Assembly (NCBI GenBank): GCA_023137195.1
Contig: JAGLPV010000044.1
Span: forward strand, 1-63,412
Length of the DNA stretch: 63,412 nt
Direction of reading: 5' to 3'
Source: Candidatus Aenigmatarchaeota archaeon
GTDB taxonomy: Archaea > EX4484-52
Every line of letters starts with the position of its first letter. Within the stretch, counting starts at the first letter, position 1. Shown here in pieces: positions 14,808 to 40,811 of this stretch. The position numbers and the translations under genes are program-made. The notes beneath the pieces are model-generated. The model worked only from the letters and a program-made list of their open reading frames with translations. It was not told the DNA's origin and did not search any database.

Positions 14808-14874
14808 TAGCATTTATGTATTTTGCTAGTATATCACGCCACATTACTTGCCTTACTTTTGTGCCGTGATATAG
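14808..14874. repeat. Dispersed palindromic (REP/MITE-like) repeat, copy 1
   Basis: tagcatttatgtattttgc...tatcacgccaca...tgtgccgtgatatag; second copy 21979-22121. Confidence 0.75.
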
Positions 14875-15451: not shown

Positions 15452-15645
15452 TGCATTCGACTTTTCTTTTTCGAATATAAGTACAATGGCATAATAGTTT
15501 TTTTATAGTTAAATCTATTATATTTGTTGTATATTCAACCATAAATAAAATTGCGAATTTCAACCATTTCAAAAGCAATTTTATGTGGGTGAATATGCTA
15601 AGAAAACACAACTGATTCGAAAAAACAGTTGTGTTTGAATACATT

Positions 15646-16890
15646 ATGCCTTACTCTAAAAACTGTCTTATCTGCAAAGGGAGCAATCCTCAAAAGTATT
15701 GCAACAGGAAATTCTGCCCGTTGATTTCAAAATCAAAGATTTATGACAATGTCAAGAAAGGCATCAAAAAAGAGTCGTTTAGCGGGAATGCTCCTGCTCC
15801 TTTTATTGGTCGTTATAATTATCCGAATATCAATGTGGGGATTTTATCGACTACTTCTGAAGATGAGGATTCATGGGAATATGATTTTCCGAGGCACTGG
15901 GCGCAAAGTGATTATGATGAAGAGAAGGTAATGGGGTTTCGGACAGGTCTTGTCAATTCAAGGGCGCAGTCGTCGGTGAAGTCGGATGAAAAAATAGTGG
16001 AGCTTGCTAGGGAGGTTGCAATGGCTCTCGTTGCTCCTGAAATGGAGATAAACCTTCAAAAAGTGCCGTCTTTTTCATTTAATCTGGATTCTTTTGCTGC
16101 ACCTACTGGTCCTGTTGCGGATATGAAGAGTGCAGAGATTACTTCTAATATAAAGACAAGTCATAAGATTGAGAGAGTTATTGACGATACTGATTTGAAG
16201 GCTAATTTGGCGATGAATGAGTTGTATGAGAAAAATTTTGATGAAAATACAATAAGCAAAATTCTTAGTGTGGGGAGTTTGGGTGTTGGGAGAAGGCGGA
16301 AGCTTGTCCCTACCCGATGGTCGATAACTGCAACAGATGATATGCTGTGTAAGAAAATAATGTCCGGGATAAAGAATAATGATTTGGTTAGTGATTATAG
16401 GATGTATTCGGGTAATTATATGGGTAATTACTATTACATAATGTTTTTGCCTTCCTGCTGGTCTTTTGAATTGTTTGAGACTTATGCTTCAAATGCGTCG
16501 TTTAATAAAACAGGTATGTCTCAATATACGACAGATTATGAAAATTATAATGGGAGGAAAGACTATGCAGCGGAGTGTACAGGAGGGTATTATGCTGTTC
16601 GGTTTCCTGTGGCAGAGAAGCTGAAGTGGTTGAAGCGGCAGGCAGGGGTGCTTATATTTCGGTTTATTACTGATGAATATACTATGCCTCTTGGGGTTTG
16701 GGTGTGTCGTGAAAGTGCAAGAAGGGCGTTGAAGAGTAAGCCGATTTCTTTTGATTCTAAAGAACAGATGCTGAATTATGCAGGGAAAGTTGCAAAGATG
16801 AAGTTTGGGTATGATGTTGGCGGGTTGGTTGGGAAGAGTAGGTTGTTGAAGGAAATGAAAACGCAGAGTCGGTTGAGTGAATGGATGTAG
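15646..16890 (+). CDS. nreA: DNA repair protein NreA (alternative GTG start 15631)
   Basis: N-terminal CxxC..C..CP, FIGRYNYP, RKLVPTRWSITATDD, GGYYA, PLGVWVCRE, C-terminal PIP box QSRLSEW. Confidence 0.9.
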   Translation: MPYSKNCLICKGSNPQKYCNRKFCPLISKSKIYDNVKKGIKKESFSGNAPAPFIGRYNYPNINVGILSTTSEDEDSWEYDFPRHWAQSDYDEEKVMGFRTGLVNSRAQSSVKSDEKIVELAREVAMALVAPEMEINLQKVPSFSFNLDSFAAPTGPVADMKSAEITSNIKTSHKIERVIDDTDLKANLAMNELYEKNFDENTISKILSVGSLGVGRRRKLVPTRWSITATDDMLCKKIMSGIKNNDLVSDYRMYSGNYMGNYYYIMFLPSCWSFELFETYASNASFNKTGMSQYTTDYENYNGRKDYAAECTGGYYAVRFPVAEKLKWLKRQAGVLIFRFITDEYTMPLGVWVCRESARRALKSKPISFDSKEQMLNYAGKVAKMKFGYDVGGLVGKSRLLKEMKTQSRLSEWM

Positions 16891-17011
16891 TTAACATTGG
16901 AATTTAACGAAGTTTGATTTTTCCTCGTGAAGCCGAAGGCGGAACAGAGCTGGAAAATCAAATTTGGGAAAAATGCGATTCGAGCATTTTTCCGTTAAAT
17001 TCCTGTTAGCC
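16889..17011 (+). mobile_element. attC-like recombination site (branched hairpin)
   Basis: Outer stem taaca(tt)ggaatttaacg / cgttaaattcctgtta, two inner arms, ends in GTTAGCC (GTTRRRY-like). Confidence 0.55.
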
Positions 17012-17231
17012 GACCCGACGACTAGATGGGGGAGAGCACAGCGGGGTCGAGCACCGTAGCCGAAGGCGAGGAGCGGAGAAGTTTTCTTACTGCCGAAAAA
17101 TTAGATAGGTGCCGTAGTTTTTACTTACTTTAACTATAAATCTCTGCGAAGCAGACTAAGTGTCCTTTAGAATCTGGACATTCGTAAAAATTAGTTAGTT
17201 TTATATATTATTCCTATTTATATTCTTTATT

Positions 17232-19205
17232 ATGGTCAATTATAAACTTTCTATTAGCATGAGTATACTAGAAAATTTAGGACTTAATTTGTATAGTAGC
17301 ATCCCAGCAGTGATTGCAGAAGCTATTGCTAATTCATATGATGCGGATGCTGAACGAGTTGATATTGATATTGACCCTAAAACTAAAACAATAACCATTA
17401 CTGATGACGGGCATGGAATGACTGAGAAAGAATGTAATGACAGATATCTTCTCGTAGGATATCATAGAAGAGATGTAGGCGAAATTGAAACTCCAAAACA
17501 TCATCGACCTGTTATGGGTAGGAAAGGAATTGGCAAGTTATCTCTTTTTTCCATAGCTAAAAATATTGAAATCCATACCATCAAATTAGATAAAGATGAA
17601 AAGAAAATTGTTGAGAAAAATGGATTTATTATGGATAGGGACACCATAATTGATGATATTAAAAAAGATGGAGTTAAAGAGAGTAATGGCTGTGATTTGA
17701 CCTCCGTAGATCCAAAAAATATTGAAATTGAGAAAGGTACTAAGCTAATTTTAACAAAGTTGCAAAAGGATATCTCCAAAACAGAATTATTTCTGAGAAA
17801 AAGATTAGCAAGAAAATTTATTATTCTTGGGAAAAAATATAAATTCAGAGTTTATATAAATGGAAAAGAAATTGCATTGAGTGATAGAGATTATTTCTCA
17901 AAAATCCAGTATTTGTGGTTTTTTGGAGATCATGGAAAAAAATGTGTGAAAGAATGCAAGAAATTAGATAATAAGAAAGAGATTTCTAGTGAAATTGTTT
18001 TAGCAGATGGTACAAAATGTGCTGTGGGGGGGTGGATTGGCACAGTTCATGAAAGGAGTAATTTAGAAGAAGGAAATAATACAATAATAATTCATTCAAG
18101 AGGAAAATCTATTCATGACAATTTACTTACAAATATTGATAATAGTGGATTTGTTACTAAATATTTAATTGGAGAAATTAAGGCGGATTTTTTAGATGAT
18201 GACAATAAGGAAGATATTACTACAAGTGATAGGCAGAAGATTCAAGAAAACAATGAAAGATTTGAAAAGATAAAGGAATTTGTTGAAGAAATTATTAAAA
18301 AGATTAGGGTTCAATGGCAATCTTGGCGTGCAGAAGATGCTACTATAAAAGCTTGTCAAATCCCAGCAATTAAAAAATGGTTTGGATCATTAAAGGGAGA
18401 TAATAAAAAATATGCTAAACAATTGTTTGGAAAAATAGATAGGTTTCCAACTGAGGATATCACTTATAAAAAAGAAATATATAAAAATTCAATCATAGCA
18501 TTTCAAACATTGGCGATAAGAGATAATTTAAGCAAATTGGATAATATAAATTCCTCCGAACATATAGAAACTTTTATTAATATATTGGGTGAAATGGATC
18601 AACTTGAATCAGCTCATTATTATGAAATAATCCGAAGTCGTATAGGAATATTGAAAAAATTTGAAAATTTGGTTGATGGTAAGGTAAAAGAAAAAGTATT
18701 GCAAAAATATATTTTTAATCATCTTTGGTTGTTAAATCAAACTTGGGAAAGAGCCAATGTTATAAGTAAGCGTATGGAAGAAACGATTATAAAAGGCATT
18801 CGGAATATAAAGTTCACAGAAAAAGAAAAATTAGCAAGGGCTGATATTCAGTATAAAACTGTTGCTGGAAAGCATGTTATTATTGAATTAAAAAAATATG
18901 ATGCTTATGTAAATTTACATGATTTACAAAAGCAAGTTAACAAATATAAAAATATTTTACTTAAAATATTGAAAGACGTATATCATATTAAAAATCCAGA
19001 AATAGAAATTATATGTCTCTTGGGGAAAAAACCAGGACCTTTAGAAATGACTGAGAAAGAAATTAAAGAACATCTTAAATTAGAAGACGCTAGATATATT
19101 ACTTATGATGAACTATTAGAAGAAGTGACTATGGTTTATGGAAGTTATATTGAAAAAAATAAGGAATTAATTGAAATTCAAAATCTTATTGGAGATCTAG
19201 TATGA
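17232..19205 (+). CDS. GHKL (HATPase_c/MORC-like) ATPase fused to a PD-(D/E)xK nuclease; HgiDII/BbrUII-like restriction endonuclease
   Basis: EAIANSYDADA, DDGHGM, GRKGIGKLS, GT; C-terminal RADI...IIELKK. Confidence 0.8.
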   Translation: MVNYKLSISMSILENLGLNLYSSIPAVIAEAIANSYDADAERVDIDIDPKTKTITITDDGHGMTEKECNDRYLLVGYHRRDVGEIETPKHHRPVMGRKGIGKLSLFSIAKNIEIHTIKLDKDEKKIVEKNGFIMDRDTIIDDIKKDGVKESNGCDLTSVDPKNIEIEKGTKLILTKLQKDISKTELFLRKRLARKFIILGKKYKFRVYINGKEIALSDRDYFSKIQYLWFFGDHGKKCVKECKKLDNKKEISSEIVLADGTKCAVGGWIGTVHERSNLEEGNNTIIIHSRGKSIHDNLLTNIDNSGFVTKYLIGEIKADFLDDDNKEDITTSDRQKIQENNERFEKIKEFVEEIIKKIRVQWQSWRAEDATIKACQIPAIKKWFGSLKGDNKKYAKQLFGKIDRFPTEDITYKKEIYKNSIIAFQTLAIRDNLSKLDNINSSEHIETFINILGEMDQLESAHYYEIIRSRIGILKKFENLVDGKVKEKVLQKYIFNHLWLLNQTWERANVISKRMEETIIKGIRNIKFTEKEKLARADIQYKTVAGKHVIIELKKYDAYVNLHDLQKQVNKYKNILLKILKDVYHIKNPEIEIICLLGKKPGPLEMTEKEIKEHLKLEDARYITYDELLEEVTMVYGSYIEKNKELIEIQNLIGDLV

Positions 19206-20146
19206 GATTTATAGACTTATTTGCGGGAATAGGTGGATTTAGGATAGCTTTAGAAAGCTTCGGACATTCTTGTGTTTTTTCTTCCGAAATTGATAAATTT
19301 GCAAGACAAACATATTCTGCAAATTTTGGTCATACCCCTCATGGAGACATCAAAAAAATAAAAGTGAATCATATCCCTAAACATGAAATACTCTGTGCTG
19401 GATTTCCTTGTCAGCCATTTAGTATTTCAGGTAAACAAAAAGGATTTAATGATATAAGGGGGACTCTTTTTTTTGATATAATTAGAATTACCAAATACCA
19501 CCAACCCAAATTGATTCTATTAGAAAATGTAAAAAATCTTGCATCCCATGATAACACTAAGACCTTAAATAAGATTATATCTAAATTAGATTATGTAGGA
19601 TATGATGTATTTCACAAAATTTTAAAATCTAGTGATTTTGGAGTTCCCCAAGCAAGAGTACGTATTTATTTTGTATGTTTTAGAAAAGATTTAAGTGTTA
19701 AAAAGTTTATATTCCCAAAATCTAAAAATAGAAATGTGTTCTTAAACTCGATAATTGATAAAACTGAGACATCTCCAGAATTTTTAATTAAAAGAGATGA
19801 TATTAAAATTTTTCCTAAAAAACTTCACACTAATATAACGGGTCTTATAAAAATTGGGGCAATAAATAAAGGTCGGCAAGGGGAAAGAATATATAGTATT
19901 GAAGGTTATGCTCCAACCCTCTCTGCAACAGGAGGAGGGCCTGCTGGAAAAACTGGAGCATACTTGATAAACAATAGAATAAGAAAGCTAACTCCCAGGG
20001 AATGTGCAAGTATACAAGGTTATCCTAAAAAATTTAAAATTCCAGTATCCAATAATCAATCATATAAACAGTTTGGAAACTCTATTTCTATTCCGGTTGT
20101 GAAAGCTATATTAAATGAAATTCAAAAAATCCCACATATTTATTAG
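19202..20146 (+). CDS. DNA (cytosine-5) methyltransferase, M.HhaI-like
   Basis: DLFAGIGG, GFPCQPFS, ENVKNL, QARVRIY, TRD QGERIYS...TLSATGGG...KTGAY, KQFGNS; ATGA overlap with upstream gene. Confidence 0.93.
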   Translation: MRFIDLFAGIGGFRIALESFGHSCVFSSEIDKFARQTYSANFGHTPHGDIKKIKVNHIPKHEILCAGFPCQPFSISGKQKGFNDIRGTLFFDIIRITKYHQPKLILLENVKNLASHDNTKTLNKIISKLDYVGYDVFHKILKSSDFGVPQARVRIYFVCFRKDLSVKKFIFPKSKNRNVFLNSIIDKTETSPEFLIKRDDIKIFPKKLHTNITGLIKIGAINKGRQGERIYSIEGYAPTLSATGGGPAGKTGAYLINNRIRKLTPRECASIQGYPKKFKIPVSNNQSYKQFGNSISIPVVKAILNEIQKIPHIY

Positions 20147-20471
20147 ATTCAAAAATTACATTTAGAAAACATATTTTGTAAAGCAGAACGTATTAAAAGT
20201 TTATAAATGAAATATTTTTTTAAGACCGCTTTTTTTTGTTTTCTCTCTCTAAAGTAAGCAAAAATTTAGGCGAATGTAATGAGCCGCTAAATTAATGTTA
20301 TGTTTAGTAGCTTTGCTATTGAAAAACCGTTTTTCTCTTTCTTGATTTAACGAAGGTGCCCATCTCGTTTGATTCTCGGTTTACTTCCATGGGCGGCAGT
20401 AAGAAAATTTTGGCTAACACCTATTGGGCGAATTGTTTGCACTAAAACATAAAAATCCAAACAAAGCAAAC

Positions 20472-20613
20472 AATCCTCCTTTCTTAATCATCTTTAGCAT
20501 AAATACATTTTCCATTTCCTGCTCTTCCAGACTTAATCTTATTTTTGAGATATTTTCTTCCAGTCTCGACAGGAGAATGAATTCAAGTGCGTTAACCCTT
20601 CTTTTTGTTTTTT
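20472..20613 (-). pseudogene. Degenerate duplicate of the atpD 3' end
   Basis: 142 nt aligning without gaps to 22131-22272 with 9 mismatches by hand count; no start codon, stop TGA changed to GGA. Confidence 0.88.
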
Positions 20614-20638
20614 ATTTGCTCATTTATTTTTAGTCTCT

Positions 20639-21706
20639 TTAAGAATATTTATTTAGAATTTTATTAAGATAAGTGATAAATTCCTTGGTGTCTAAAAAAT
20701 AATTAGGATATGCTTTTTTTAAGTCTACTGCTGTATCTGCTCCAACTAAAACAACATCATATTCTTTTTTACCATAAATTTTTTTCTCAGCATTTGCATA
20801 ATCTTTTATTGCTTTCTCTTCTTGTCGTTTCGAATATGCAGAGATTGTTAATCTTTCCAGGACAGTATCTAATTCTAATAAAAAGAAATGTAAATTTTTT
20901 TTGTTTTTTAAATCATCAAAAAGTTTGATTGATTTGGTCCAACTTTCCATTTTAGTTCTTACATTCAATTCTTTTTCTTTTTCTTTAATTAACAAATAAA
21001 GTTCTTTCTCATCATCCAGGGTATTTGGTATTGAGGGGCAACCTTCTATTTTTGCAAATGCAGAACTCATTAATTTAAAAAAAACTTTCCATTTTTCTTC
21101 CCCTTCATTTGATTTTATTGCCTGACCTGTAAAAAAACCAACTGTTTCAACTGCCGTCGCCCAGATATGTTGTAATTTTGATCTAATTTGCACTTCAATT
21201 AATAAGCCATTATATATTTTCTTTCCTTTATCGCTGTTATACTTGTAAATCAAATGTATGCTTCGGTATCCATCTTTTTTTGGATTAGAGATATAATCTT
21301 TTTCATTTACTTTTTTATGTTTCAAATCCCCTTTAATATAATGGTCGTGGTAAAGTTTTTTTGCTAATTGAACATTTGACATTACTACCCTACATCCAGC
21401 AATATCCTGCATTTGTGTAAGTTTCATCGTTGCTTTATTGTCGCCGTATTTCCTATTGAGTTTTTTTATAATTGATGGAACACGCTTAAGTCTTTGAGCA
21501 GATAATGCATTTTTATCTATTTTTTCAGAAACTCGTTTTAACCTTTTTTTAAAAATATGCATGGGATAGCTATGTGCTGCTCTCCAATTACTCAATATTT
21601 CTAAAGCACAATTTTTATTTTCTTCTGATTCTTTATTATTACGCAAAATAATTCCTGCAGAATCAGTTTTTGACTTTGAAAATTCTTTAGGATTTATTAT
21701 CTTCAT
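20639..21706 (-). CDS. RelA/SpoT synthetase-domain protein (small alarmone synthetase-like)
   Basis: QRLKRVPSIIKKL, MQDIAGCRVV, DYISNPKKDGYRSIHL, EVQIRSKLQHIWA. Confidence 0.9.
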   Translation of the reverse strand: MKIINPKEFSKSKTDSAGIILRNNKESEENKNCALEILSNWRAAHSYPMHIFKKRLKRVSEKIDKNALSAQRLKRVPSIIKKLNRKYGDNKATMKLTQMQDIAGCRVVMSNVQLAKKLYHDHYIKGDLKHKKVNEKDYISNPKKDGYRSIHLIYKYNSDKGKKIYNGLLIEVQIRSKLQHIWATAVETVGFFTGQAIKSNEGEEKWKVFFKLMSSAFAKIEGCPSIPNTLDDEKELYLLIKEKEKELNVRTKMESWTKSIKLFDDLKNKKNLHFFLLELDTVLERLTISAYSKRQEEKAIKDYANAEKKIYGKKEYDVVLVGADTAVDLKKAYPNYFLDTKEFITYLNKILNKYS

Positions 21707-21770
21707 AGCAATATAAAGAACATGTTAGTATTTAAATGTTTCCAATTGCGCAGTAACGATTTAAAATCGA

Positions 21771-21917
21771 TGTCAAGTTGCGCGGTTTGCGGAAATTGCT
21801 AAAAATGGCTAAAATGGGCTCCAGATGGCATTATTATGGTAAAAGTTAATATTGGCGATTATTCTAATGTCGAGTTGCGCGGTTTGTAGAAATAACTTGT
21901 GTCGAGTTGCGCGGTTT
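21771..21917 (+). repeat. Three 18-bp direct repeats TGTCRAGTTGCGCGGTTT
   Basis: Copies at 21771-21788, 21868-21885 and 21900-21917. Confidence 0.85.
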
Positions 21918-21978
21918 TGAAAAAAATTATTTTAAATGATAGAAGGGAGAGTTTAGTTCTATTTATAGCAAAACACAT

Positions 21979-22121
21979 TAGCATTTATGTATTTTGCCAG
22001 TATCACGCCACATACTTGCATTTTGTTCTTGTTGCACAAATGTGATGAGACAAGAACAAAATCTTAGAAGTAGTATGGATTGTAAGGAAACTTCCATGAT
22101 TACTTTTGTGCCGCGATATAG
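21979..22121. repeat. Dispersed palindromic repeat, copy 2, with extra internal hairpins
   Basis: Same ends as 14808-14874, with inserted attttgttcttgt/acaagaacaaaat hairpin. Confidence 0.75.
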
Positions 22122-22132
22122 AAAGTAAATAA

Positions 22133-22750
22133 TCATCCTTTCTTAATCATCTTCAGCCTAAATACATTTTCTCTTTCCTGCTCTTCCAGACTCAATCTTA
22201 TTTTCGAGATATTTTGTTCCAGTCTCGGCAGGAGAATGAATTCAAGTGCGTTAACCCTTCTTTTTGTTTTTTCTATCTCAATCAACAATTTCCTGAGTGT
22301 TGTTTCAATCTCAGCGGATTCTATTATTTTTTCAAGAAGGCATTCATATTGTCTTGAGGCGCTGTCCAGTCTTGCGGAACCTTCAACAAGGCTGTAGCCT
22401 CGTTCATATATGCTTTTGCATATCTCGCCCTGTTTTGTTATTTTTGGCACTTTTACACCCATGAGGTTTTTGGTCTCGATTTCAAGAGGGATTTCTTTTA
22501 GGTAAAGGGCTGCTGTTTTTATTGCAATTCCGCCGTCGTGCATTTCTGTTGTTTTCATTTTTTCCTGGGCAACTGCGTACAATTCAGACATTTGGCTCTT
22601 CTGTCCTTTGGCGTTTTCCAGGATTTTGAAAAACTCCATTATCAGACCGTCTCTTTTCTTTTTCAAGAGACTGTAGCCGTTTTTTGCCAGTTTGTATTGC
22701 TTTTTTAATTTTAGCAGTTCGCTTCTTGTTGCTTTTACATCTATTGCCAT
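22133..22750 (-). CDS. atpD: A/V-type ATP synthase subunit D
   Basis: ATRSELLKLK, LLKKKRDGL, EIEKTKRRVNALE. Confidence 0.95.
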   Translation of the reverse strand: MAIDVKATRSELLKLKKQYKLAKNGYSLLKKKRDGLIMEFFKILENAKGQKSQMSELYAVAQEKMKTTEMHDGGIAIKTAALYLKEIPLEIETKNLMGVKVPKITKQGEICKSIYERGYSLVEGSARLDSASRQYECLLEKIIESAEIETTLRKLLIEIEKTKRRVNALEFILLPRLEQNISKIRLSLEEQERENVFRLKMIKKG

Positions 22751-22756
22751 AATAAC

Positions 22757-23416
22757 TTATTTTGTAAATATGTTCTCCTTTAATTGAGTGTTTGTGATGT
22801 TTTTTATCAATTCGTGACCTGCAAGTGTTTGCCTGTCTTTTTGCCCGTTTATGTTTATTATGTATGTGGTACTGCATTGGTTTTCATCGTATGCGCCGGA
22901 TGTGTCGCATACGCATCCTACGACACAGAGGCTGTCGCTGTTGATTTGTTGGGCGTATTGTTTTGTTATTTTTTCAACAGAGTCATTTACATTGTCCTCT
23001 ACGCATTTTATGTGGTCGTTAATATCGGTGAAAGTGTTTTTTATTGTGGATAATCTCTTTTTTATCGCTTCTGTTTCATCGTCAAAGTTTCCTGTTGCGG
23101 CTTTTACTGCGCCGCAGTCGGTGTGACCCAATATTACTACGACAGGGATTTTGAGGTGTTGTATTGCGTAATCGATTACTGCATCTGAGTCCGAGGAGGT
23201 GTTTCCTATGTCTTTTCCGACAAATACATTGCCCATCATGTCTTCGAGATTTCCATAGAGTGCAAGAGGCATTCTTGAATCAGAGCAGGTTATGAGGGCA
23301 ACTTTTGGTTTTTGACCGCTTGTGTGTTGGTTTAGCAGTTCCTGTTTTTCTTTTGCTATCCTGCTGTTGTTTTCCAGCATTTGACAAAAAAAATCATAGG
23401 CTTCCTGTTTTGACAT
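22757..23416 (-). CDS. Beta-class carbonic anhydrase
   Basis: Zn ligand motifs CSDSR and HTDCGAV; Q.PK..LITC. Confidence 0.88.
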   Translation of the reverse strand: MSKQEAYDFFCQMLENNSRIAKEKQELLNQHTSGQKPKVALITCSDSRMPLALYGNLEDMMGNVFVGKDIGNTSSDSDAVIDYAIQHLKIPVVVILGHTDCGAVKAATGNFDDETEAIKKRLSTIKNTFTDINDHIKCVEDNVNDSVEKITKQYAQQINSDSLCVVGCVCDTSGAYDENQCSTTYIININGQKDRQTLAGHELIKNITNTQLKENIFTK

Positions 23417-31420: not shown

Positions 31421-34400
31421 TTACTCCCAGACATGCACTGAAAACACTGCCGGTCCAAACATCCAGGGGGTTTTGCCTATATAGTACTCGTAAGTTTCTA
31501 CGTTACCCATAGTTATGCCGTATTGTTCCAGGAAAAGTCTTAGTCTTTCTTTTGCATCTTCTGTCGCCGCCGTCTGGTTGGAGAATACTTCTCCATAGCC
31601 AACAGAGCCAGGAACCTTGAATGTATATATCATCCTGTTGTCCGGGGATGTGTTGGTGGGCGTTAAGTAATTAATTCCTGTGTTCATTTGGATTGAGAGG
31701 TTTTCCCCCTGGATAACTACGTTGGAAGGAATGTTGACTATATATGGATCTCCAAGTAAGCGGTATTCTGGTCCATAATCGCTTAAATTATATATTTTCT
31801 GCCAGCCTGAGCCGTCTGAGTTGTTTATGTAGACTCTGTCTGTCCAGTAATCTGAAGAATAGGATGTGACTCTTGCATCCAATACAGTTATGCCGGAGGG
31901 AATAGGATAGGTCTTATTTTTCTGGTTTTCTATAATCCCTCCAAATTCTTCCCTATCGACAGTGACTGTCACTTCCTTGTATTTTATTTCTTCTGCAGTT
32001 GGAGTGTGGTTGAAATAGATGTATGAGTCAGGATAGAGTGTGTTGTTTGCGCTTCCTTCAAATTCCATTAGCTGTGTGACATAACTGAGGTTAACCATGC
32101 TTTCGGCGATTTCCAAGTATATTTCTTTTAGTTCATCTGCATTACTACTCTGGTAATATTTTGGACAGTATGTTGAATTTGTTCCTTCCAGCCAGTCAAC
32201 TGCTGTGCAGTCCCAGCATGCAATTTTTCTTAATGTATTTTGACCACCTACATCTGGTCCGAAAGATACAGCGTATACCTTTATGTTGTATTCTCTTGCG
32301 TCACAAGCAGCCTGTATTGCATGATCCTGGGGGTCATATGTTGTATCTCCGTCTTGGTCATGGTCTGAGACAGGATCCATACTACAATGCGTTCCGGCTT
32401 CTCCATCAGACATAACAAGCATAGCCCTTTCTATTCTATCTGTTTCCACTTCTATTTTAGTTAATTCTATTTGAAGATCGAATTTCGCACTGTCAGAATC
32501 ATTGTTGTTTAGTTTTACAGACACAATATTTTTTCCTTCAACCAGATACGACAAGGGGATTTTAATATTTCCTTTTATTTTTACATCATCAATATAAAAT
32601 CGCTCTCCATCATCTCCGGATCTACATCCGAACCTGACAAGAAAATTGCTGATTTTGTTGTATCCGGATAAATCTATTTGTGCATGACGATATGTGTGAT
32701 CGTCATCATTGGTATCATAATATGCAACATCATGCCAACTGCCATCCCATACTCTTACATTAGCATATTCCCAGGATTCGAAATTGCTTGGACCAAGCCT
32801 CCACCAGTAAGATAATTCCGGATCGTCATATTGCGTTAAATCTACTGTAGTTTCCGCATACCCGTAAGAGTCCATGTCCCGGAACACAAGAACATCTGTT
32901 CCGTTGTAGGCAGGATAGTATCCTTGATTTGCCATTATATATACTTCCTGCCAGGTATCATCAATGAACCAGTAACCTGGTGCTGTATTGATGTCATTTC
33001 CGTCAATTTTGATTGCTCCTGTTCCATAGTAAGTTTCAAAGCCATCATAAAATGTGTTATTTTTCGGTCGGTTCCAATAAGTTGCCTTATGTTCTGCGGT
33101 CTCCTTATCAATTAGATAATTATTTATATAAATCTCTGCATTATCGTCAGAAAGAACATAAAGCAATGTTTCCTGAATATCTGATAAGTTATTAATTGTG
33201 AAATGCTTTCTGAAGTAATAGTTTCCATTACTTGATTCATGTTTAAATTCCACTAAATCAAATTGAGTGGATGTAGTTTGGTTGTGTTCGCCAATTAGTT
33301 TGATTTTAACCTTATTGTTGCCGGACAAATAATTATCCTCATTATCTGTTATATTACAATAATAATAAGACCACACTCCGGGATTTATTGTTTTATTTTC
33401 ACATAAGCCATATTCCCATTTGCTGTTTGCATAATCAAAAACAGATATGTCATAATAGGATGTTGTGTTTGTTTTTACTTTTATTTTTACGGATATGTTG
33501 TTTGGATTGTAGATTGGATCAGATGTAAACTCAATTTTTGTCATATGTTCGTCCCGGGTTCCAGTTATTGCAATATCATCAACATAAAATCTCTCATCAT
33601 CCCAACTCGATTTGCATCCGAACCGGACAATAAAATTACTGATTTTGTTGTATCCGGATAAATCTATTTGTGCATGACGATAGGTGTGGTCATCATCATC
33701 ATAATTGTAATATGCAACATCATGCCAACTGCCATCCCACACTCTTACATTAGCGTATTCTCCATAATCAAAACCATTTGGACCAAGCCTCCACCAGTAA
33801 GATAATTCCGGATTGTCATATTGCGTTAAATCTACTGTAGTTTCCGCATACCCGTAAGAGTCCATGTCCCGGAACACAAGAACATCTGTTCCGTTGTAGG
33901 CAGGATAGTATCCTTGATTTGCCATTATATATACTTCCTGCCAGGTATCATCAATGAACCAGTAACCTGGTGCTCTATTGATGTCATTCCCGTCAATTTT
34001 GATTGCTCCTGTTCCATAGTAAGTCTCAAAGCCATCATGAAAGGGACTAATGGGAGGCATACTTTTAATATCTAAGGATATACCATTTTCTGTATATGTG
34101 TTCTCTTTTGTTCCGCTGGTATTTGTACCAGTTATTATTGTGTAATTAAATATATGATTCTTGATATATGACGTGTCGTAATTATTGCCTATGTCTGTGT
34201 TTATATTGGGTGCATATGCGACATTTTCAAATCCTAATATTGCGTTGCCTGAACTCCATGTTGTGTCGTTGTAATTTAGTTCTTTCCAGTTTCTTCCATT
34301 GCCGTCGTTAGGGGGGTCGGTTAAAGGGCAATCTTTATTGTACGACCAGTTGCTTTTGTTTTCAATCAATAATGTCTTTATTTCGGTTATATTTGGTGGT

Positions 34401-35968
34401 GCCATATGTGCGGTTAATAATTCATTTGCTTTGTTTATTCCACAACAAATACATGTTAACGACGAATCATCGTATGTGTTTATTTGATTTGTAAGACTTG
34501 TTTTATCTGTAGAAAGATCGTGTGTTTGGCTTACTGACGTACTAAAAGAAACTAACCCAATTTGGTTGCTTGTTGCATTTAACATAGCATTAACAAAATC
34601 TTTATCTACACACTTTGCTATACTGAGTCTTCGTGTATCAGATAGATTAAGATTGGGATCATTACATGATCTATCTGTTCCATCTACTGTATTGTCATAT
34701 CCAATTCTCCAGTCCATACTTCCACTAACATCAGTAATCAATACAGCATCTGTAGCACCATACCCTCCTTCCTGATTAAAACTCCCTTCAATATATCCAA
34801 ACCGTATGGGAATTGTATTAGAACTTAACATATTATAATCCAGTCCTGAAGAAGACAGTAAGGTACTTAGATTTCCTTTATCAATAGAAATACTCTGTTC
34901 TCCCGTACCATTGCTTTGGAAAACAGTTGCATTTGCAATCTTCAAATAGATACTGGTGTTGGATATGTTGTTGTAATAATGCAAAAATGCTGTCATGTTG
35001 TTGAGTTGCCCCGGAACAAAAAAAGAAGAATAAATATTGAATACTCCATCTATGCCGGGAAAATTATATTTATTCTTTGGTGGAGCCGTGTTTAGTTGTG
35101 TTGTATTATAGGATACTTTAATGAATCCTCCCCCTATATAACTTCTTGTCAGATTGTTAGATAAAAAGACAATATGGATGTTGTTTTCATCGGGTTGAAT
35201 ATATGAGAGATATGTCGGATTTGTAATATTGGCTTTTAGATTTGCGCGAAGACTTGTCTGGCTTGCATTTCTAGAATAGTTGCCTGAATAATTGTTGTTT
35301 ATATATATTGTGAAATTGTCTCCTGTATTCATTTCCAGATTTATTTTCTTTACTGTGTCTACATCTAATGGCATAGTAAATGTCTTTGTAATATTTCCCT
35401 GACCAATGAACCCTCCAAAATACAGATATTTTGATGTTTCTTTGCTGATTTCCATGATTGTTGACCTTGCAGTATATCCCTTGAACGGGACATTTTCCTT
35501 GTATCCGGAGATTATCCTGGAGGCAGAGGTTATTGTTCTTGCATTGTGGTAGCCTGTGCTTGAATTATAGAGTATCGTGCCTCCTGCATCATCAATGTCT
35601 TTTACTTTAATGGTATATTTTCTGTCTGGCGGAAGAAGAGGCGAAAAAGTTTCTTTGGTTATATTTTCAATATACTCTGTCTGGTTGACAGACCATAGCA
35701 GTCCGCAAATATCAACCAACGTCTTGTTTTTGTCTTCATCTTCCAGGTGGGTTTCGTTTATCAGTGCGTCGACGAATGTATCGTTGAGGTCGCTTAATTT
35801 TGTAAGGGACAATATCTGCATTGCATCTTCTGCGTTGAAGTACATGTCTTTATAGTGGATTGTGTCATAGGAATCAAGAGTGGGCAGTTGGAAAAGAACG
35901 ACAGATCCCAGTAAAAGAAAGACGAGCGCAAGGGTTGAGTCCATTGTAAAGAAAAAACCTTTTTTCAT
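31421..35968 (-). CDS. Large secreted VWA-domain protein with class III (prepilin-like) signal; putative adhesin
   Basis: MKKG/FFFTMDS plus hydrophobic helix; MIDAS DVSGS, TCICCG, VMSDG; internal duplication. Confidence 0.8.
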   Translation of the reverse strand: MKKGFFFTMDSTLALVFLLLGSVVLFQLPTLDSYDTIHYKDMYFNAEDAMQILSLTKLSDLNDTFVDALINETHLEDEDKNKTLVDICGLLWSVNQTEYIENITKETFSPLLPPDRKYTIKVKDIDDAGGTILYNSSTGYHNARTITSASRIISGYKENVPFKGYTARSTIMEISKETSKYLYFGGFIGQGNITKTFTMPLDVDTVKKINLEMNTGDNFTIYINNNYSGNYSRNASQTSLRANLKANITNPTYLSYIQPDENNIHIVFLSNNLTRSYIGGGFIKVSYNTTQLNTAPPKNKYNFPGIDGVFNIYSSFFVPGQLNNMTAFLHYYNNISNTSIYLKIANATVFQSNGTGEQSISIDKGNLSTLLSSSGLDYNMLSSNTIPIRFGYIEGSFNQEGGYGATDAVLITDVSGSMDWRIGYDNTVDGTDRSCNDPNLNLSDTRRLSIAKCVDKDFVNAMLNATSNQIGLVSFSTSVSQTHDLSTDKTSLTNQINTYDDSSLTCICCGINKANELLTAHMAPPNITEIKTLLIENKSNWSYNKDCPLTDPPNDGNGRNWKELNYNDTTWSSGNAILGFENVAYAPNINTDIGNNYDTSYIKNHIFNYTIITGTNTSGTKENTYTENGISLDIKSMPPISPFHDGFETYYGTGAIKIDGNDINRAPGYWFIDDTWQEVYIMANQGYYPAYNGTDVLVFRDMDSYGYAETTVDLTQYDNPELSYWWRLGPNGFDYGEYANVRVWDGSWHDVAYYNYDDDDHTYRHAQIDLSGYNKISNFIVRFGCKSSWDDERFYVDDIAITGTRDEHMTKIEFTSDPIYNPNNISVKIKVKTNTTSYYDISVFDYANSKWEYGLCENKTINPGVWSYYYCNITDNEDNYLSGNNKVKIKLIGEHNQTTSTQFDLVEFKHESSNGNYYFRKHFTINNLSDIQETLLYVLSDDNAEIYINNYLIDKETAEHKATYWNRPKNNTFYDGFETYYGTGAIKIDGNDINTAPGYWFIDDTWQEVYIMANQGYYPAYNGTDVLVFRDMDSYGYAETTVDLTQYDDPELSYWWRLGPSNFESWEYANVRVWDGSWHDVAYYDTNDDDHTYRHAQIDLSGYNKISNFLVRFGCRSGDDGERFYIDDVKIKGNIKIPLSYLVEGKNIVSVKLNNNDSDSAKFDLQIELTKIEVETDRIERAMLVMSDGEAGTHCSMDPVSDHDQDGDTTYDPQDHAIQAACDAREYNIKVYAVSFGPDVGGQNTLRKIACWDCTAVDWLEGTNSTYCPKYYQSSNADELKEIYLEIAESMVNLSYVTQLMEFEGSANNTLYPDSYIYFNHTPTAEEIKYKEVTVTVDREEFGGIIENQKNKTYPIPSGITVLDARVTSYSSDYWTDRVYINNSDGSGWQKIYNLSDYGPEYRLLGDPYIVNIPSNVVIQGENLSIQMNTGINYLTPTNTSPDNRMIYTFKVPGSVGYGEVFSNQTAATEDAKERLRLFLEQYGITMGNVETYEYYIGKTPWMFGPAVFSVHVWE
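32585..34041. repeat. Intragenic direct repeat of about 470 bp
   Basis: About 32585-33052 vs 33576-34041, near-identical DNA encoding DGFETYYGTGAIKIDGNDIN...ERFYxDD. Confidence 0.9.
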
Positions 35969-36003
35969 ATAATTAATTAGGATACAAAAATATATAAATG
36001 AGT

Positions 36004-39000
36004 TTATTCCCAGACATGCACTGAAAACACTGCTGGTCCAAACATCCAGGGGGTTTTGCCTATATAGTATTCGTAGGTTTCTACGTCACCCAGGGTTATG
36101 CCGTATTGTTCCAGGAAAATTCTTAGTCTTTCTTTTGCATCTTCTGTCGCTGTTGTCTGGTTGGAGAATACTTCTCCATAACCAACAGAGCCGGGAACCT
36201 TGAATGTATATATCATCCTATTGTCCGGGGAGGCTCCTGTAGAGTTTATAGGATTGAACCCAGTATTCATCCTGATAGAAAAGTTATTTCCTGGGATAAC
36301 AAGGTTGGATGGGATGTGGACTATATATGGGTCGCCCAGTAGAGGGTATTGTAATCCATAGTCGCTTAGGTTATATGCTTTCTGCCAACCTGAGCCATCT
36401 GAATTGTTTATGTAAATACTATCTGTCCAGTAGTCGGACGAATACGAGGTGACTCTTGCATCCAGTACAGTTATGCCAGAGGGGATAGAATATGTCTTGT
36501 TTTTTGGGTCTTCTATAGACCCCCTGAATTCTTCCCTGTCGATAGTCACTGTTACTTCCTTATACTTAATTTCCTCTGTGGTTGGAGTGTAGTTGAAATA
36601 TATGTATGAATCCGGGTAAATTATTACATGGGTGTATGTTCCTGTGATATTCAATTTCTGGGTATTGTAACTTATCATTGTATTTGCGATGTCCTGATAT
36701 ATCTGCTTTAGTTCATCTGCATCATTGCTTGAACGGTATATGCCGTGTCCACAGTCTGCAATACCCCGGAGAGTTAACTCATCTACTGTACTTCCAAAAC
36801 CAACAGCATGGGATATTATCCCGTAATTTTCATAAGCATAGCATGCAAAGTCTATTGCCTGCTGTTTTGCCTGGGTATCAGGACAATTCCAGATAGGAGG
36901 ATAACAATAATTTGCCCCTCCATCACTCATGACAAGCATTGCCTTATTTCTTGAGTCATCGAAAGAGTCAAGTTTCATGTCGAATCTTGTGGAGCCAATG
37001 CTGTTGTATAATACAGTGGCCAAAATATTCGTGCCTTCTTTAAAATAAGACCTGTCGATTAGTTCAATGCGATTCCAGTATTCTGCATCATGATTTGGTC
37101 CGGGATCTGAGTCAATTAGTTGCCCGTTTAGATATATATCAGTCATATCATCTGATGTGACTTTAAGGAATCCTCTTCCTACTTTGTTCATGTCATCTAT
37201 CGTGAAATTTTTCCTGAAGTAATAATTATCTGTTCCGTTTCTTATTTCTACGAGGATATCATCGAACCTGAAATAGCCCCATTCATCTACTCTATTTGCC
37301 TGTAATTTCCCGCCAATATCAAGGTAATATACTCCTTGTCCTTCAATCCAGGGAGTTATATCCTGCGTTGTAGATGTTGGAGGAATATCAATATCCGGGT
37401 TAATTCTATAATTTATTTCAGGAGATGTATCTCCCCCGGCACTTGATTGTTCTGTTCCGAGCCAGTGGACGCCGGTAGTAGGGCTTGTCCATTGAGCTTT
37501 TATCCAGACTTCATCACTGTCTTCAAAACGGGCATTGCCGTCCCATTCGTATTTGAATGATAATCTTGCTGTACCATTAGCAGATAATATAGCATGCATG
37601 TCCGGCGTTATGTTTATCTGAATGCCATATGCTCCAGAGCAATCATTATTAGTGCATCTGTTTCGTGCAGGAGCACCAGTTCTCGTGTCAAATTCCAGCA
37701 TTTCATTTGCAACCAGGTTGTAGTCTATATTGTCGTCATAACCATAAGGTCCGACGTTGTTCTGTGGGTCATAATCCCAGCCGTCATCCCCCATATTCCA
37801 TCCGAATGTGTTTGCTGTCGAGTTGTATCCTGTCTCAAAACTTACAGGAATTGTGCTTTGGTTATCGTCCCAGAGGTTAGCATAAGTTGTATTTCCGTTG
37901 CTGCCCCCTGTTGCAATCTCTGTTGTTACCGGTATTGAACCGGTGCCGTTTCCAAAAACAGCATTTCCTGTTGACCAGTTTGTCTGGAGGGTGTAGTTGT
38001 AGTCATACCATCTGTTCCCGTAGCTGTCGTCCGGCGGTTCTGTAGTAAGGAAACTGTCATTGTAATACCATGTGCTTCCATTGTTCATAATCGTCGTTAC
38101 ATTAATTGTGGTAAGAAGCATGGCTGTTGAGTCTGCTATGCCGCAGGATATGCATGTCGCTCCCAAGACATGGTCATAACCAGTGATTTTTGTCTGCAAT
38201 GTTGCATTGTTTTGAGTAAGGTATATTGTTCGGCCATGGTCTGTTTGTGTGCCGTATGCTATGAGTCCTACTTTTTGACCTTCATTATTTAAAATCGTAT
38301 TTACGAATTCTTTATCTGCTATCTTGGCAACTGCCATACGCTCCTGGTTTCCCGGCTGGACATCGGAAGTACTCATGCTCCCGGATAAATCTGTAATCAA
38401 AACAACATCACTGCCGTCACTTAGTCCTGTCAGATTCTTTATGCCCATCCGGATTGGAATTGTTCTGGAACTCAACGAGTTATAGTTTAGTCCCGAAGAA
38501 GATAAATTTGCACTTATCTGTCCTTCAGATACATAAATAGTTTGTTCTCCTACGCTCTTGTTGGTGAAGATAGTTGCATTTGCAATTTTTAAATATACTG
38601 TGCCGTTTGTGTTGTTTGTGTCATAATGCAAAAATACTGTCATGTTGTTGAGTTGCCCCGGGACGAAAAAGGAGGAATATATGTTGAACATGCCGTCTAT
38701 ACCAGGAAAATAATATTTTTTCTGCGATTCTGCTGTATTGAGCTGGGTTGTGTTGTATGATATTTTTATGAATCCTCCGCCGATATATTTTTGGCTTAAT
38801 TCATCTGACAAAAAGACAATACTTATGTTGTTTTCATTGGGTTGAATATATGAGAGATATGTTGGATTTGTAATATTGTATTTTAGATTTGCGCGAAGAC
38901 TTGTCTGGCTCGCATTTCTAGAATAGTTGCCCGAATAATTGTTATTTATATATATTGTGAAATTGTCTCCTGCATCCATTTCCAGGTATATTTTTTTTAT

Positions 39001-39630
39001 CGTATCTATATTAGAGGGCATAGTGAATGTTTTTGTAATGTTTCCCTGTCCAATGAACCCGCCGAAATAAAGGTACTTTGACGTTTCTTTGCTGATTTCT
39101 TTGATAGTTGACCTTGCAGTATATCCTTTGAATGGGACATTTTCCTTGTATCCTGAGATTATTCTGGAGGCAGAGGTTATTGTTTTTGCATTGTAGTAGC
39201 CTGTGTTGGAAGCGTATATTGTGTTACTTTTATTGATGTCTTTTATGTTGATTGCATATTTTGTGCCTGTCTGGAGAAGAGGTGAAAAAGTTTCTTCTGT
39301 TATGTTTTCAATGTAGTCTGTCTGGTTGACAGACCATAGCAGTCCGCAAATATCGATCAAAGTCTTGTTTTTGTCTTCATCTTCCAGGTAGGTGTCGTTA
39401 ATTAGTTTGTCCACGAAGGTGTCGTTAAGGTCGCTTAATTTTGTGAGAGATAGTATCTGCATTGCATCTTCTGCGTTGAAGTACATGTCCTTGTAGTGGA
39501 TTGTGTCATAGGAGTCATGCGAGTATAGTTGAAAAAGTACAGTGGCGGCGATCAATAAAAAGGAGAGTGCAATAACAGAATCAAATGTAAAGAAGAAGCC
39601 TTTTCCTCCACAATGAGTATTATTTTTCAT
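36004..39630 (-). CDS. Large secreted VWA-domain protein, paralog of 31421-35968
   Basis: GGKG/FFFTFDS signal; DLSGS, TCISCG, VMSDG; identical C-terminus YYIGKTPWMFGPAVFSVHVWE. Confidence 0.8.
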   Translation of the reverse strand: MKNNTHCGGKGFFFTFDSVIALSFLLIAATVLFQLYSHDSYDTIHYKDMYFNAEDAMQILSLTKLSDLNDTFVDKLINDTYLEDEDKNKTLIDICGLLWSVNQTDYIENITEETFSPLLQTGTKYAINIKDINKSNTIYASNTGYYNAKTITSASRIISGYKENVPFKGYTARSTIKEISKETSKYLYFGGFIGQGNITKTFTMPSNIDTIKKIYLEMDAGDNFTIYINNNYSGNYSRNASQTSLRANLKYNITNPTYLSYIQPNENNISIVFLSDELSQKYIGGGFIKISYNTTQLNTAESQKKYYFPGIDGMFNIYSSFFVPGQLNNMTVFLHYDTNNTNGTVYLKIANATIFTNKSVGEQTIYVSEGQISANLSSSGLNYNSLSSRTIPIRMGIKNLTGLSDGSDVVLITDLSGSMSTSDVQPGNQERMAVAKIADKEFVNTILNNEGQKVGLIAYGTQTDHGRTIYLTQNNATLQTKITGYDHVLGATCISCGIADSTAMLLTTINVTTIMNNGSTWYYNDSFLTTEPPDDSYGNRWYDYNYTLQTNWSTGNAVFGNGTGSIPVTTEIATGGSNGNTTYANLWDDNQSTIPVSFETGYNSTANTFGWNMGDDGWDYDPQNNVGPYGYDDNIDYNLVANEMLEFDTRTGAPARNRCTNNDCSGAYGIQINITPDMHAILSANGTARLSFKYEWDGNARFEDSDEVWIKAQWTSPTTGVHWLGTEQSSAGGDTSPEINYRINPDIDIPPTSTTQDITPWIEGQGVYYLDIGGKLQANRVDEWGYFRFDDILVEIRNGTDNYYFRKNFTIDDMNKVGRGFLKVTSDDMTDIYLNGQLIDSDPGPNHDAEYWNRIELIDRSYFKEGTNILATVLYNSIGSTRFDMKLDSFDDSRNKAMLVMSDGGANYCYPPIWNCPDTQAKQQAIDFACYAYENYGIISHAVGFGSTVDELTLRGIADCGHGIYRSSNDADELKQIYQDIANTMISYNTQKLNITGTYTHVIIYPDSYIYFNYTPTTEEIKYKEVTVTIDREEFRGSIEDPKNKTYSIPSGITVLDARVTSYSSDYWTDSIYINNSDGSGWQKAYNLSDYGLQYPLLGDPYIVHIPSNLVIPGNNFSIRMNTGFNPINSTGASPDNRMIYTFKVPGSVGYGEVFSNQTTATEDAKERLRIFLEQYGITLGDVETYEYYIGKTPWMFGPAVFSVHVWE

Positions 39631-39710
39631 ATAGGTTTAATAGCAGATAAATATATAAATTAAAAATTATCCGGAAGCATAACCTGAAAAGTTCATCTAT
39701 AGGAACAATA

Positions 39711-40811
39711 TTATATTATTTCTATAGCATATTTTTTTTGAACCATAACCTGCATAATGCTGTCTGCTGCATTGTTTGAGGAGGGGATAATTACCACAGT
39801 ATCCCTGAACTCGCTTGGATAATCAGAGTCATTGAAAAAAGACAGATTAAGTTTTGTATCTTGAGTTATTTTTGAATTGTAAATGCTGTTTTCAAGAGAC
39901 GGCGTCATTTCTTTTGCGCCCCTGTATTGACTGTATTTTTTGTCGCAAAACAACTTATATGCTTTTAATTCTTTTTTTGAAAAGAGGGCAATAGCTATAT
40001 TTGGAAGGCTTTCCTGTATTTTTTCCCCGTTAAACGCAATCGCGCCAATTTGCTTTTCCTTTCTTTTTCCCATCAAATATGCAAACCGGTATGGTCCGCC
40101 AAGAAAAATATCTGTGCTCTTTATTGTAAAAAGATCAAGATGGGTTCCTTTTATATTTCTTTTATATTCTTTTCCTTCAGAATAGCACAACAAATCAGGT
40201 GTTTTGTTTGCGTGGAAAGCGGCTTTTTTGCTGATATCCCTCAATTCATCAACATGTTCAATATTTTCGCTAAAAATGCCTTTCTCATAAGCAACAAAGA
40301 GCTCTCCGGTAAAAAGGTTAAGTACAAGAGAATATTTAATCATGCGATTCTTTATCAATGTCAGTGAAGAAGTGCATGTCCTAAGTTCTGCTCTTTTGGC
40401 TTCTGAATCAAACAGAGCCCCCATACTTTCATATTCGGTGATGCCTTCATTTATCCTTTTTTCAAGATAAGCCGAGTTATCTATTGGATCGCTTATTATT
40501 AGCGGGCAATTGCTGTTTATTTTTCCTTCTCCTATTTTGCCTTGTTCTTCTGTAATTATAATTCCTTTTTGGTTATAAATATCCATGAACAATTTTTCAT
40601 GCCCGTAACATATTGCTTCTTCAACAACAGCATCAAAAAAGCGTGTATCTTTTTTCTCTTTTTTTATATAATGATTTCTTGCCGTTTTCTTCATTTCATC
40701 CAAGCCGGCTTTTGCTTTGTTAAGAGGAAGTTTTCTTAAAATATTATATGCAGAAGACATTACTCTGATAGAGCCATTGAGCATTTTTATGTCTTTATTA
40801 TTCAGATACAT
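39711..40811 (-). CDS. Divergent inositol-monophosphatase/FBPase (FIG) superfamily protein
   Basis: TEEQG and IISDPIDNS resemble the EE...DPIDGT metal motifs; rest divergent. Confidence 0.55.
   Translation of the reverse strand: MYLNNKDIKMLNGSIRVMSSAYNILRKLPLNKAKAGLDEMKKTARNHYIKKEKKDTRFFDAVVEEAICYGHEKLFMDIYNQKGIIITEEQGKIGEGKINSNCPLIISDPIDNSAYLEKRINEGITEYESMGALFDSEAKRAELRTCTSSLTLIKNRMIKYSLVLNLFTGELFVAYEKGIFSENIEHVDELRDISKKAAFHANKTPDLLCYSEGKEYKRNIKGTHLDLFTIKSTDIFLGGPYRFAYLMGKRKEKQIGAIAFNGEKIQESLPNIAIALFSKKELKAYKLFCDKKYSQYRGAKEMTPSLENSIYNSKITQDTKLNLSFFNDSDYPSEFRDTVVIIPSSNNAADSIMQVMVQKKYAIEII

Follow-up and report, generated by a model that had tools for sequence, protein, structure and literature searches.

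Integron recombination is thought to depend on an extra domain of the integrase IntI, which reads the extrahelical bases of the attC site. In archaea, integrons have been reported from 75 metagenome-assembled genomes (MAGs) of nine phyla, mostly as clusters of attC sites without IntI; Aenigmatarchaeota were among the phyla with attC sites of restricted diversity, and of the cassettes whose function could be predicted, 8.3% had restriction-modification (R-M) functions (Ghaly et al. 2022, PMC9668308). We found no description in the literature of Xer-type cassette arrays in DPANN archaea, that report being the closest, and none of a conserved three-way junction, of a tail and outer stem drawn from two ends, or of Xer-type genes in the place of intI. 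Here we describe a 63,412-nt stretch of DNA (the window; contig JAGLPV010000044.1 of assembly GCA_023137195.1) from a Candidatus Aenigmatarchaeota archaeon. Its minus-strand segment 16895..20417 (3523 nt), as delimited by a box rule, junction cases and a circle fold, is likely to be one integron-type gene cassette that carries a type II R-M system and its own Y-shaped site and moves by Xer-type recombination.

The proposed site is a Y-shaped, attC-like palindrome of 125 nt that lies directly after the nreA gene (16887..17011, + strand). Its outer stem (TAACA/TGTTA), with a TT bulge at 16897-16898, leads into an arm of 10-11 bp and two inner hairpins; the 5′ box ends in TTAA|C, and the 3′ box is GTTAGCC at 17005-17011. 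Folded as RNA, the palindrome reaches −49.6 kcal/mol, as compared with −26.6 ± 3.1 for shuffled sequences (z −7.4, 0/200 as good), while its complementary strand folded as DNA reaches −24.3 (z −4.7). An earlier note on this DNA, made from the letters alone, had pointed out this palindrome with its 2-nt bulge and GTTAGCC end, and also the exact complement GGCTAAC at 20412-20418; both are present, and each of the two 7-mers occurs only once in the window. The same note had called the match to the integron consensus imperfect, and GGCTAA+C and GTTAGCC indeed each agree with RYYYAAC/GTTRRRY at 6/7 positions. Beyond the 3′ box follows a G+C-rich tail of small hairpins with G-N-A loops (17012..17081, +), and related tails follow other members of the site family described below.

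The palindrome matched only itself in its own genome by BLAST, a regular-expression search for relatives failed, and RNAalifold, run on a MAFFT alignment, found no more than the base of one hairpin. The idea of a unique element was overturned by a covariance model, R1, built from an alignment of 17 palindrome copies. With this model 16 sites were detected at E ⩽ 0.01 in the own genome, which is 84.8% complete and belongs to a 1.4-Mb symbiont-type archaeon. Matches were found in 31 of 42 genomes of the same order (labelled G001, G003 and so on, with contigs as C), and in 29 of them at E ⩽ 1e-4, the threshold of a phylum-wide search that gave the same 42 genomes; similar TAAC...GTTA sites, for which the earlier note had proposed to look, are thus widespread. 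Pieces of 16890-17170 also match other families of the order by BLAST. The common layout consists of a 5′ box ending in TAAC, a 1-3-nt bulge, a 10-nt arm, a three-way junction with two variable hairpins and fixed junction bases, the return arm, and a 3′ box starting with GTTA; the consensus boxes of 60 distinct copies are 5′ RYATAAC and 3′ GTTA-D-R-Y. R1 sites often begin at or just after a stop codon, and often stand in co-oriented arrays, 0.5-2 kb apart with one short open reading frame (ORF) between. On the same-genus contig G001:C82, for example, four copies lie ~520 nt apart and adjoin a tyrosine recombinase gene. Copies within one genome are diverse in sequence, and their fold is kept via compensatory changes. 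In the 60 copies, aligned by fitting to the model, 89.6% of cells are paired, as against 70.8% in shuffles and 33-53% in slid controls, and 311 cells carry double changes; in an unfitted alignment the figures are 83% and 74% in shuffles. The three helices are therefore supported by covariation.

The folding strand is the + strand of the window, since G.T and T.G pairs (132) far outnumber A.C and C.A pairs (27) in the R1 sites, and since R1 scores 88.7 bits on the + strand of the palindrome and 9.2 bits on the − strand. Of 37 inter-site intervals, with longest-frame ORFs taken and no gene caller used, 26 have their ORFs antisense to the folding strand, 8 have them in sense and 3 are mixed. The R-M genes belong to the minority in that they run sense to the folding strand, as do those of other cassettes that are large or of defence type. 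Three-base G-N-A loops closed by C-G are exceptionally stable in DNA, not in RNA, and many R1 hairpins are capped in exactly this way. These features bear on the possibility that the palindrome is a structured RNA, such as a 3′ untranslated region, terminator or processing signal that is part of the transcripts of nreA and other genes upstream. Its very stable RNA fold, the many G.U-compatible pairs on one strand and the start of the element at the nreA stop codon would all suit such a role. However, no Rfam family matched the region at gathering score or up to E 10 (the attC model is not in Rfam), most inter-site ORFs lie on the opposite strand, the G-N-A loops with C-G closing are of the DNA-stable kind, and the complementarity of ends described next would go unexplained. 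We thus regard a structured RNA as highly improbable.

An integron cut parts the end of a site from the rest, and the far end of each cassette therefore carries the bases that complete its own site. We took 38 neighbouring co-oriented pairs from 97 distinct sites among 108 matches, excluding any pair whose members lay over 5 kb from each other or had truncated flanks, and set the 4 nt that follow GTTA in one site against the 4 nt that precede TAAC in the next one. The 3′ ends were complementary to the 5′ box of the next site at 123/152 positions, and perfectly so in 24 of the 38 pairs, as compared with 74/152 for their own 5′ box and 66.8 ± 5.9 for random 5′ boxes (maximum 86 in 2000 draws). 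This end rule is predicted by cassettes, not by self-contained repeats; by itself it does not tell which neighbour, left or right, the Y-shaped part of the site (the Y-domain) moves with. It argues against the view that the palindrome is a selfish repeat, of the repetitive extragenic palindrome (REP/REPIN) or miniature inverted-repeat transposable element (MITE) kind, which inserts itself at gene ends, with the R-M pair a separate arrival, for example via homologous recombination between conserved flanks. The frequent position of sites at or right after stop codons, the presence of other small repeats in the genome (such as a MITE at 21979-22124) and the fact that Y-domains are separable from both flanks would fit a selfish repeat. 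Yet the copies are diverse and bear compensatory changes, unlike the products of a recent burst, the 3′ box matches the 5′ box of the neighbour rather than its own, and the junctions examined show no target duplications, so that we consider this explanation improbable.

The position of the crossover can be read from loci that share sequence on one side only. In G029, the left flanks of sites on C16 and C10 match at 99% for 212 nt, as far as TAAC, beyond which the sequences are unrelated. G036 and G025 have unrelated left flanks, but from TAAC onward they agree at 91.6% through the Y-domain, the tail and a further ~700 nt. A cassette for a 142-aa lipoprotein (C56:35701-36218 of the own genome) is 88% identical over 520 nt to its counterpart on G001:C66, and its homology in the own genome starts at TTAGAGA, directly past the cut. 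The breakpoints thus fall at TAAC within 1-2 nt in 3/3 informative cross-locus comparisons, and on the folding strand the crossover would lie at TAA|C in the 5′ box. With the crossover at this box of the + strand, the cassette's own site would be the large palindrome.

The junctions of the R-M cassette lie at 16894|16895 on the left and 20417|20418 on the right, and its minus strand corresponds to the integron 'top' strand, to which the R-M genes are antisense. The far end of the cassette (20394..20417, +) comprises an outer-stem half (20394-20410) and GGCTAA (20412-20417); the near half of the outer stem is found just after the tail (17079..17095, +), and the two halves form a 17-nt inverted match of 94%. 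When the cassette is closed into a circle in silico, GGCTAA and C16895 together become the perfect complement of GTTAGCC at 17005-17011, and 24 consecutive positions of the far end pair with 17079-17095 and 17006-17012, the tail forming a side branch. This circle junction folds at −53.1 kcal/mol vs −38.5 for the integrated state; the control, in which this stretch was joined to 300 random 38-mers, gave −38.8 ± 2.0 (best −46.4). Because the box is rebuilt and the circle folds in this manner, the GTTAGCC/GGCTAAC complementarity marks both cassette ends. A reading of 20394-20420 as a partial inverted copy of the element was ruled out by the end rule and the circle fold. The earlier note had proposed an integron-type insertion with a junction G^TTAGCC at 17005. 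The cassette ends that it named do bound the R-M module, whereas its polarity, its assignment of the site and its enzyme did not survive, and G^TTAGCC is not the junction at 17005 but is one on the minus strand at the other copy (20418-20412).

Across the right junction lies the putative resident partner site (20418..20476, +), with a 9-bp hairpin (20432-20440/20466-20474) whose right arm overlaps a copy of the atpD 3′ end, one or two bases off the position that the earlier note had implied for the arms. It may be an attI-like site or a decayed attC site. It is conserved in the same-genus genome G003 (C7:7174-7257, 81% over 82 nt), where it also stands after an atpD 3′ remnant, followed by a different cassette with a small lipoprotein gene and an R1 site of 25.4 bits. 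The matching pair of boxes of that cassette, GTTAAGTC at 6622 and GACTTAAC at 7156, are each unique in 9 kb. An attachment site would be expected to show just this, a single resident site that holds different cargo in the two genomes.

We also inspected public metagenome data, namely the contigs of four cold-seep runs (X1-X4) from one study. Neither the circle junction nor an empty site was bridged by any contig of these runs, which were searched as contigs only. A joint of 16892 to 21755 in X4 (depth 3.1, side 34) was too weak and was not used. One 577-nt contig of X2 matches the window at 16891-17290 alone, with 179 letters falling outside the window, which is a hint rather than evidence. 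In the runs X1-X4, the summed contig depth over 16869-17135, the region of the site and tail, and over 20607-21674 (a RelA/SpoT-domain gene) in run X1 is 2-3 times that of the bins beside, and variant contigs end near 16891. Within this cold-seep study, the site may be present in a different setting in related strains.

With regard to the enzyme, none of the 42 genomes contains a protein above the cut-off of the IntI model (TIGR02249), so the IntI-type recombinase assumed by the earlier note was not borne out. The two recombinases of the own genome score 216 and 187 bits on this model (cut-off 265). All TIGR02249 matches cover profile positions ~1-180 and 237-315, and because positions ~181-236 are unmatched in every recombinase, the IntI-specific stretch is missing. 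In contrast, the XerA model NF040815 (cut-off 220) is passed by the recombinases of G001:C82 (266.2 bits), own C1 (257.9 bits) and own C45 (224.7 bits), the latter two being the only tyrosine-recombinase places of the own genome, on contigs other than that of the window. By hand count, an R1 site lies within 3 kb of the recombinase at at least 9 of ~65 places; in G001:C50, G041:C78 and G008:C40 it stands ~200 nt upstream on the same strand. In relatives, but not in the window, Xer-like genes are found at an array end, divergent from the cassette ORFs, in a position like that of intI, and a simple TAAC...GTTA hairpin overlaps the start of the Xer-like gene in G001:C82 and G041:C78. A tree of 17 recombinases splits into two clades with support 99/99, the first with sequences from site-poor genomes and own C45, and the other, clade B (11 sequences), with own C1 and 5/6 of the site-adjacent genes.

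The recombinases of G001:C82 and G041:C78, which belong to different families, are near-identical sisters within clade B (branches 0.05 and 0.17, support 100/100), and immediately ahead of the start codon both genes have a conserved hairpin with a TATA-like loop. It would appear from this that the recombinase was transferred together with its site.

These results also bear on whether the R-M module is a canonical integron cassette, as part of a cluster of attC sites lacking integrases (CALIN) or as a solo cassette, with a true IntI encoded in the unassembled part of the genome or in other organisms. The box consensus matches RYYYAAC/GTTRRRY at 6/7 positions and the own genome is incomplete, and in archaeal MAGs the attC clusters described are mostly without IntI while IntI1 recombined 8/9 archaeal attC sites (PMC9668308). 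Nevertheless, a true IntI was found in 0/42 genomes, 10 of them at least 90% complete, no match holds the IntI-specific stretch, and Xer-like genes occupy the place of intI, at the array end and divergent from the cassette ORFs. A canonical cassette served by IntI therefore seems unlikely to us.

What we propose for the 16895-20417 segment is the following. The Y-shaped palindrome beside nreA would be the cassette's own recombination site, completed in the circle when the far end 20394-20417 joins C16895 to form a 7-bp R box (GGCTAAC/GTTAGCC) and a 17-bp outer stem. The + strand would fold as single-stranded DNA, and a tyrosine recombinase would cut the folded strand at 5′-TAA|C for exchange with the resident site 20418-20476, the partner that adjoins the old atpD 3′ remnant. 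The enzyme is probably an accessory XerA-like recombinase of the array-adjacent type, for which C1:6616-7434 is the candidate in the own genome. The site family with its fold, strand bias, array layout, end rule and junction positions is shown by the sequences, while the single-strand mechanism, the acting enzyme and a continuing ability of the cassette to move are inferred.

Several observations weigh against this proposal. An Xer-type enzyme would have to perform the cassette recombination, and the window holds no recombinase gene, as the earlier note had already remarked of integrases nearby. On the tree, recombinases with a site within 3 kb are not grouped more than expected by chance (5 changes; 301/500 shuffles were as low). 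At 20418-20476, where that note had placed a second attC, the fold is no better than shuffles (z 0.46) and R1 gives no match. The bulge of the R1 sites lies on the 5′ arm of the folding strand, while canonical attC sites have their extrahelical bases on the other arm. Of 16 homologies that set in near the 3′ box, six do so 1-3 nt ahead of the G; these six comprise the tail only, with unrelated Y-domains, and the match of the window to G040 is among them. As these six tail-only homologies start there, the 3′ box also acts as a module boundary, and the tail and outer stem may each be a separate module. Six further alignments cross the 5′ cut by at least 40 nt on each side. The lipoprotein cassettes of C56 and G001:C66 have differing downstream sites, and the homology on G001:C66 begins 16 nt past the cut. 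No second copy of the R-M cassette was found, the best relatives of its restriction enzyme among genomes and metagenome contigs being 37-48% identical, and no family sites lie beside these relatives. Finally, GTCGAC is only mildly under-represented, with 71 observed vs 91 expected occurrences.

Like integron cassettes and their attC sites, the R1 units have inverse core boxes near RYYYAAC/GTTRRRY and, in outline, an imperfect palindrome with a bulge between its R and L stems, of which one strand folds. Their ORFs are mostly on the other strand, and they form co-oriented arrays with one gene each. The crossover would be at AA|C of the folding strand with the ends rebuilding the site in a circle, and the cargo includes R-M, toxin-antitoxin-like and secreted-protein genes. 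Unlike attC, the R1 site has as its variable part a conserved three-way junction whose junction bases are fixed, extends into a tail branch and a 13-19-bp outer stem drawn from both cassette ends, and has its bulge on the other arm. Unlike integrons, there is no IntI, and the array-adjacent recombinases are XerA-like without the IntI-specific domain.

In that the candidate enzymes pass NF040815, the system resembles Xer/dif with archaeal XerA, and a folded single strand as Xer substrate has a precedent in integrative mobile elements exploiting Xer (IMEX) of the CTX phage type. It differs from Xer/dif in that there are several recombinase paralogues per genome, with one clade common to different families, and in that R1 sites are multi-copy and bound cassettes, whereas dif is single and lies at the replication terminus. 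With the REP, bacterial interspersed mosaic element (BIME) and REPIN families, which go with REP-associated tyrosine transposases (RAYT), the sites share that they are extragenic palindromes at gene ends, many per genome and often clustered; they are unlike these families in their diverse copies, neighbour-matched boxes, single genes between sites and Xer-type tyrosine recombinases. Some of the R1 sites may already have been counted among the Aenigmatarchaeota attC sites in the supplements of Ghaly et al. 2022.

A more general reading is that ultra-small archaea practise integron-like gene capture by plain Xer-type recombinases, with branched fold-back sites split between the cassette ends; we hold this to be quite possible, just short of an even chance. 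If true, the IntI-specific domain would be dispensable when cassettes recombine as single strands. The system would then be the ancestral form of integrons or else an independent invention, and reduced genomes would be stocked with defence genes dispersed at gene ends and not kept on one platform. If Xer-like enzymes do act here, the origin of integrons from Xer recombinases would become testable through natural intermediates, and surveys that require IntI would have missed widespread gene exchange in DPANN archaea. For the own genome it would mean a route by which a 1.4-Mb archaeon gains and shuffles defence systems.

The cargo of the cassette is a real type II R-M pair, as judged from its protein matches and as the earlier note had called it. 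The restriction enzyme (17232..19205, +, 657 aa) belongs to the BbrUII/HgiDII family (NF050001, 674.6 bits, cut-off 550), has an N-terminal GHKL ATPase domain (PF13589) and is called REase_II by PADLOC. The second gene (19202..20146, +, 314 aa) encodes a Dcm-type C5 cytosine DNA methyltransferase (PF00145, 4.9e-99; TIGR00675, 313 bits; MTase_II by PADLOC). The two genes overlap by 4 nt and form one operon. Upstream of the restriction gene is a conserved leader (17110..17160, +) with a TATA-like run at 17129-17141 and a GAA-loop hairpin at 17144-17154; this leader may act as a promoter. The stretch 17004-17170 is 85% identical to G040:C156, where it precedes a different R-M system, and the leader region is matched also in loci L026-L028.

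Defence cargo is present in other cassettes of the own genome as well, namely a ProA/Hhe-like helicase and a Dam-type R-M system. The helicase lies on C1:1-7434, a candidate platform that begins with the end of an hsdM-like gene, followed by family sites at 530 and 862 and then by the helicase gene, whose 1602-aa product resembles ProA/Hhe-like anti-phage helicases (1122.8 bits, below the cut-off of 1500). After it come a decayed site, a simple TAAC...GTTA hairpin and the clade-B XerA-like recombinase gene. On C45, two co-oriented family sites bound a 6.8-kb unit (33681-40652) with genes for CcrM-like and Dam-family methylases and for 310-aa and 1199-aa proteins without family matches. In the own genome GATC (1107 observed vs 4181 expected) and GGCC (211 vs 1779) are both strongly under-represented. 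The R-M pair, the Dam-type R-M system and the helicase are bounded by family sites, and a candidate gene of the defence family PDC-S33 lies just beyond the R-M cassette.

The left flank of the cassette is the resident gene nreA (15631..16890, +; Pfam Nre_N 1e-73, Nre_C 2.5e-29), whose stop codon TAG at 16888-16890 lies 4 nt before the left junction. Its similarity to the same-genus genomes G003 and G001 stops at the stop codon; in G001, and in the 175 nt that remain of the G003 contig, nreA is not followed by a family site. A search for nreA relatives returned only the G003 record and two distant genomes. The G+C content is 0.24-0.36 in the R-M module vs 0.37-0.47 in nreA.

On the right, the resident site overlaps an orphan copy of the atpD 3′ end (20463..20613, −, 151 nt) that has lost its stop codon and is 93% identical to 22122-22272, at the end of the true atpD (22133-22750, −). 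Between these 151-nt direct repeats, which together span 20463-22272, stands the RelA/SpoT-domain gene (20639-21706, −), a full-length match to the PADLOC candidate defence family PDC-S33 (E 2.5e-116). It is accompanied by three 19-25-nt direct repeats at 21770-21925 and by the MITE. In G003 an amidohydrolase gene is found at the equivalent place, before a shorter atpD remnant. As one idea, a circle carrying an atpD end may have been inserted by a single crossover and so have placed genes between atpD and the remnant.

The MITE-like repeat is ~146 nt long at 21979-22124, directly after the atpD stop codon, and occurs also at 14808-14874. In the own genome it has at least seven near-full copies (83-98% identity) and many short forms that consist of its two ends, and in G003 there are 15 or more matches, often at contig ends. 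Further along the A-type ATPase operon, a gene for a beta-class carbonic anhydrase (22757-23416) is placed between atpD and atpB.

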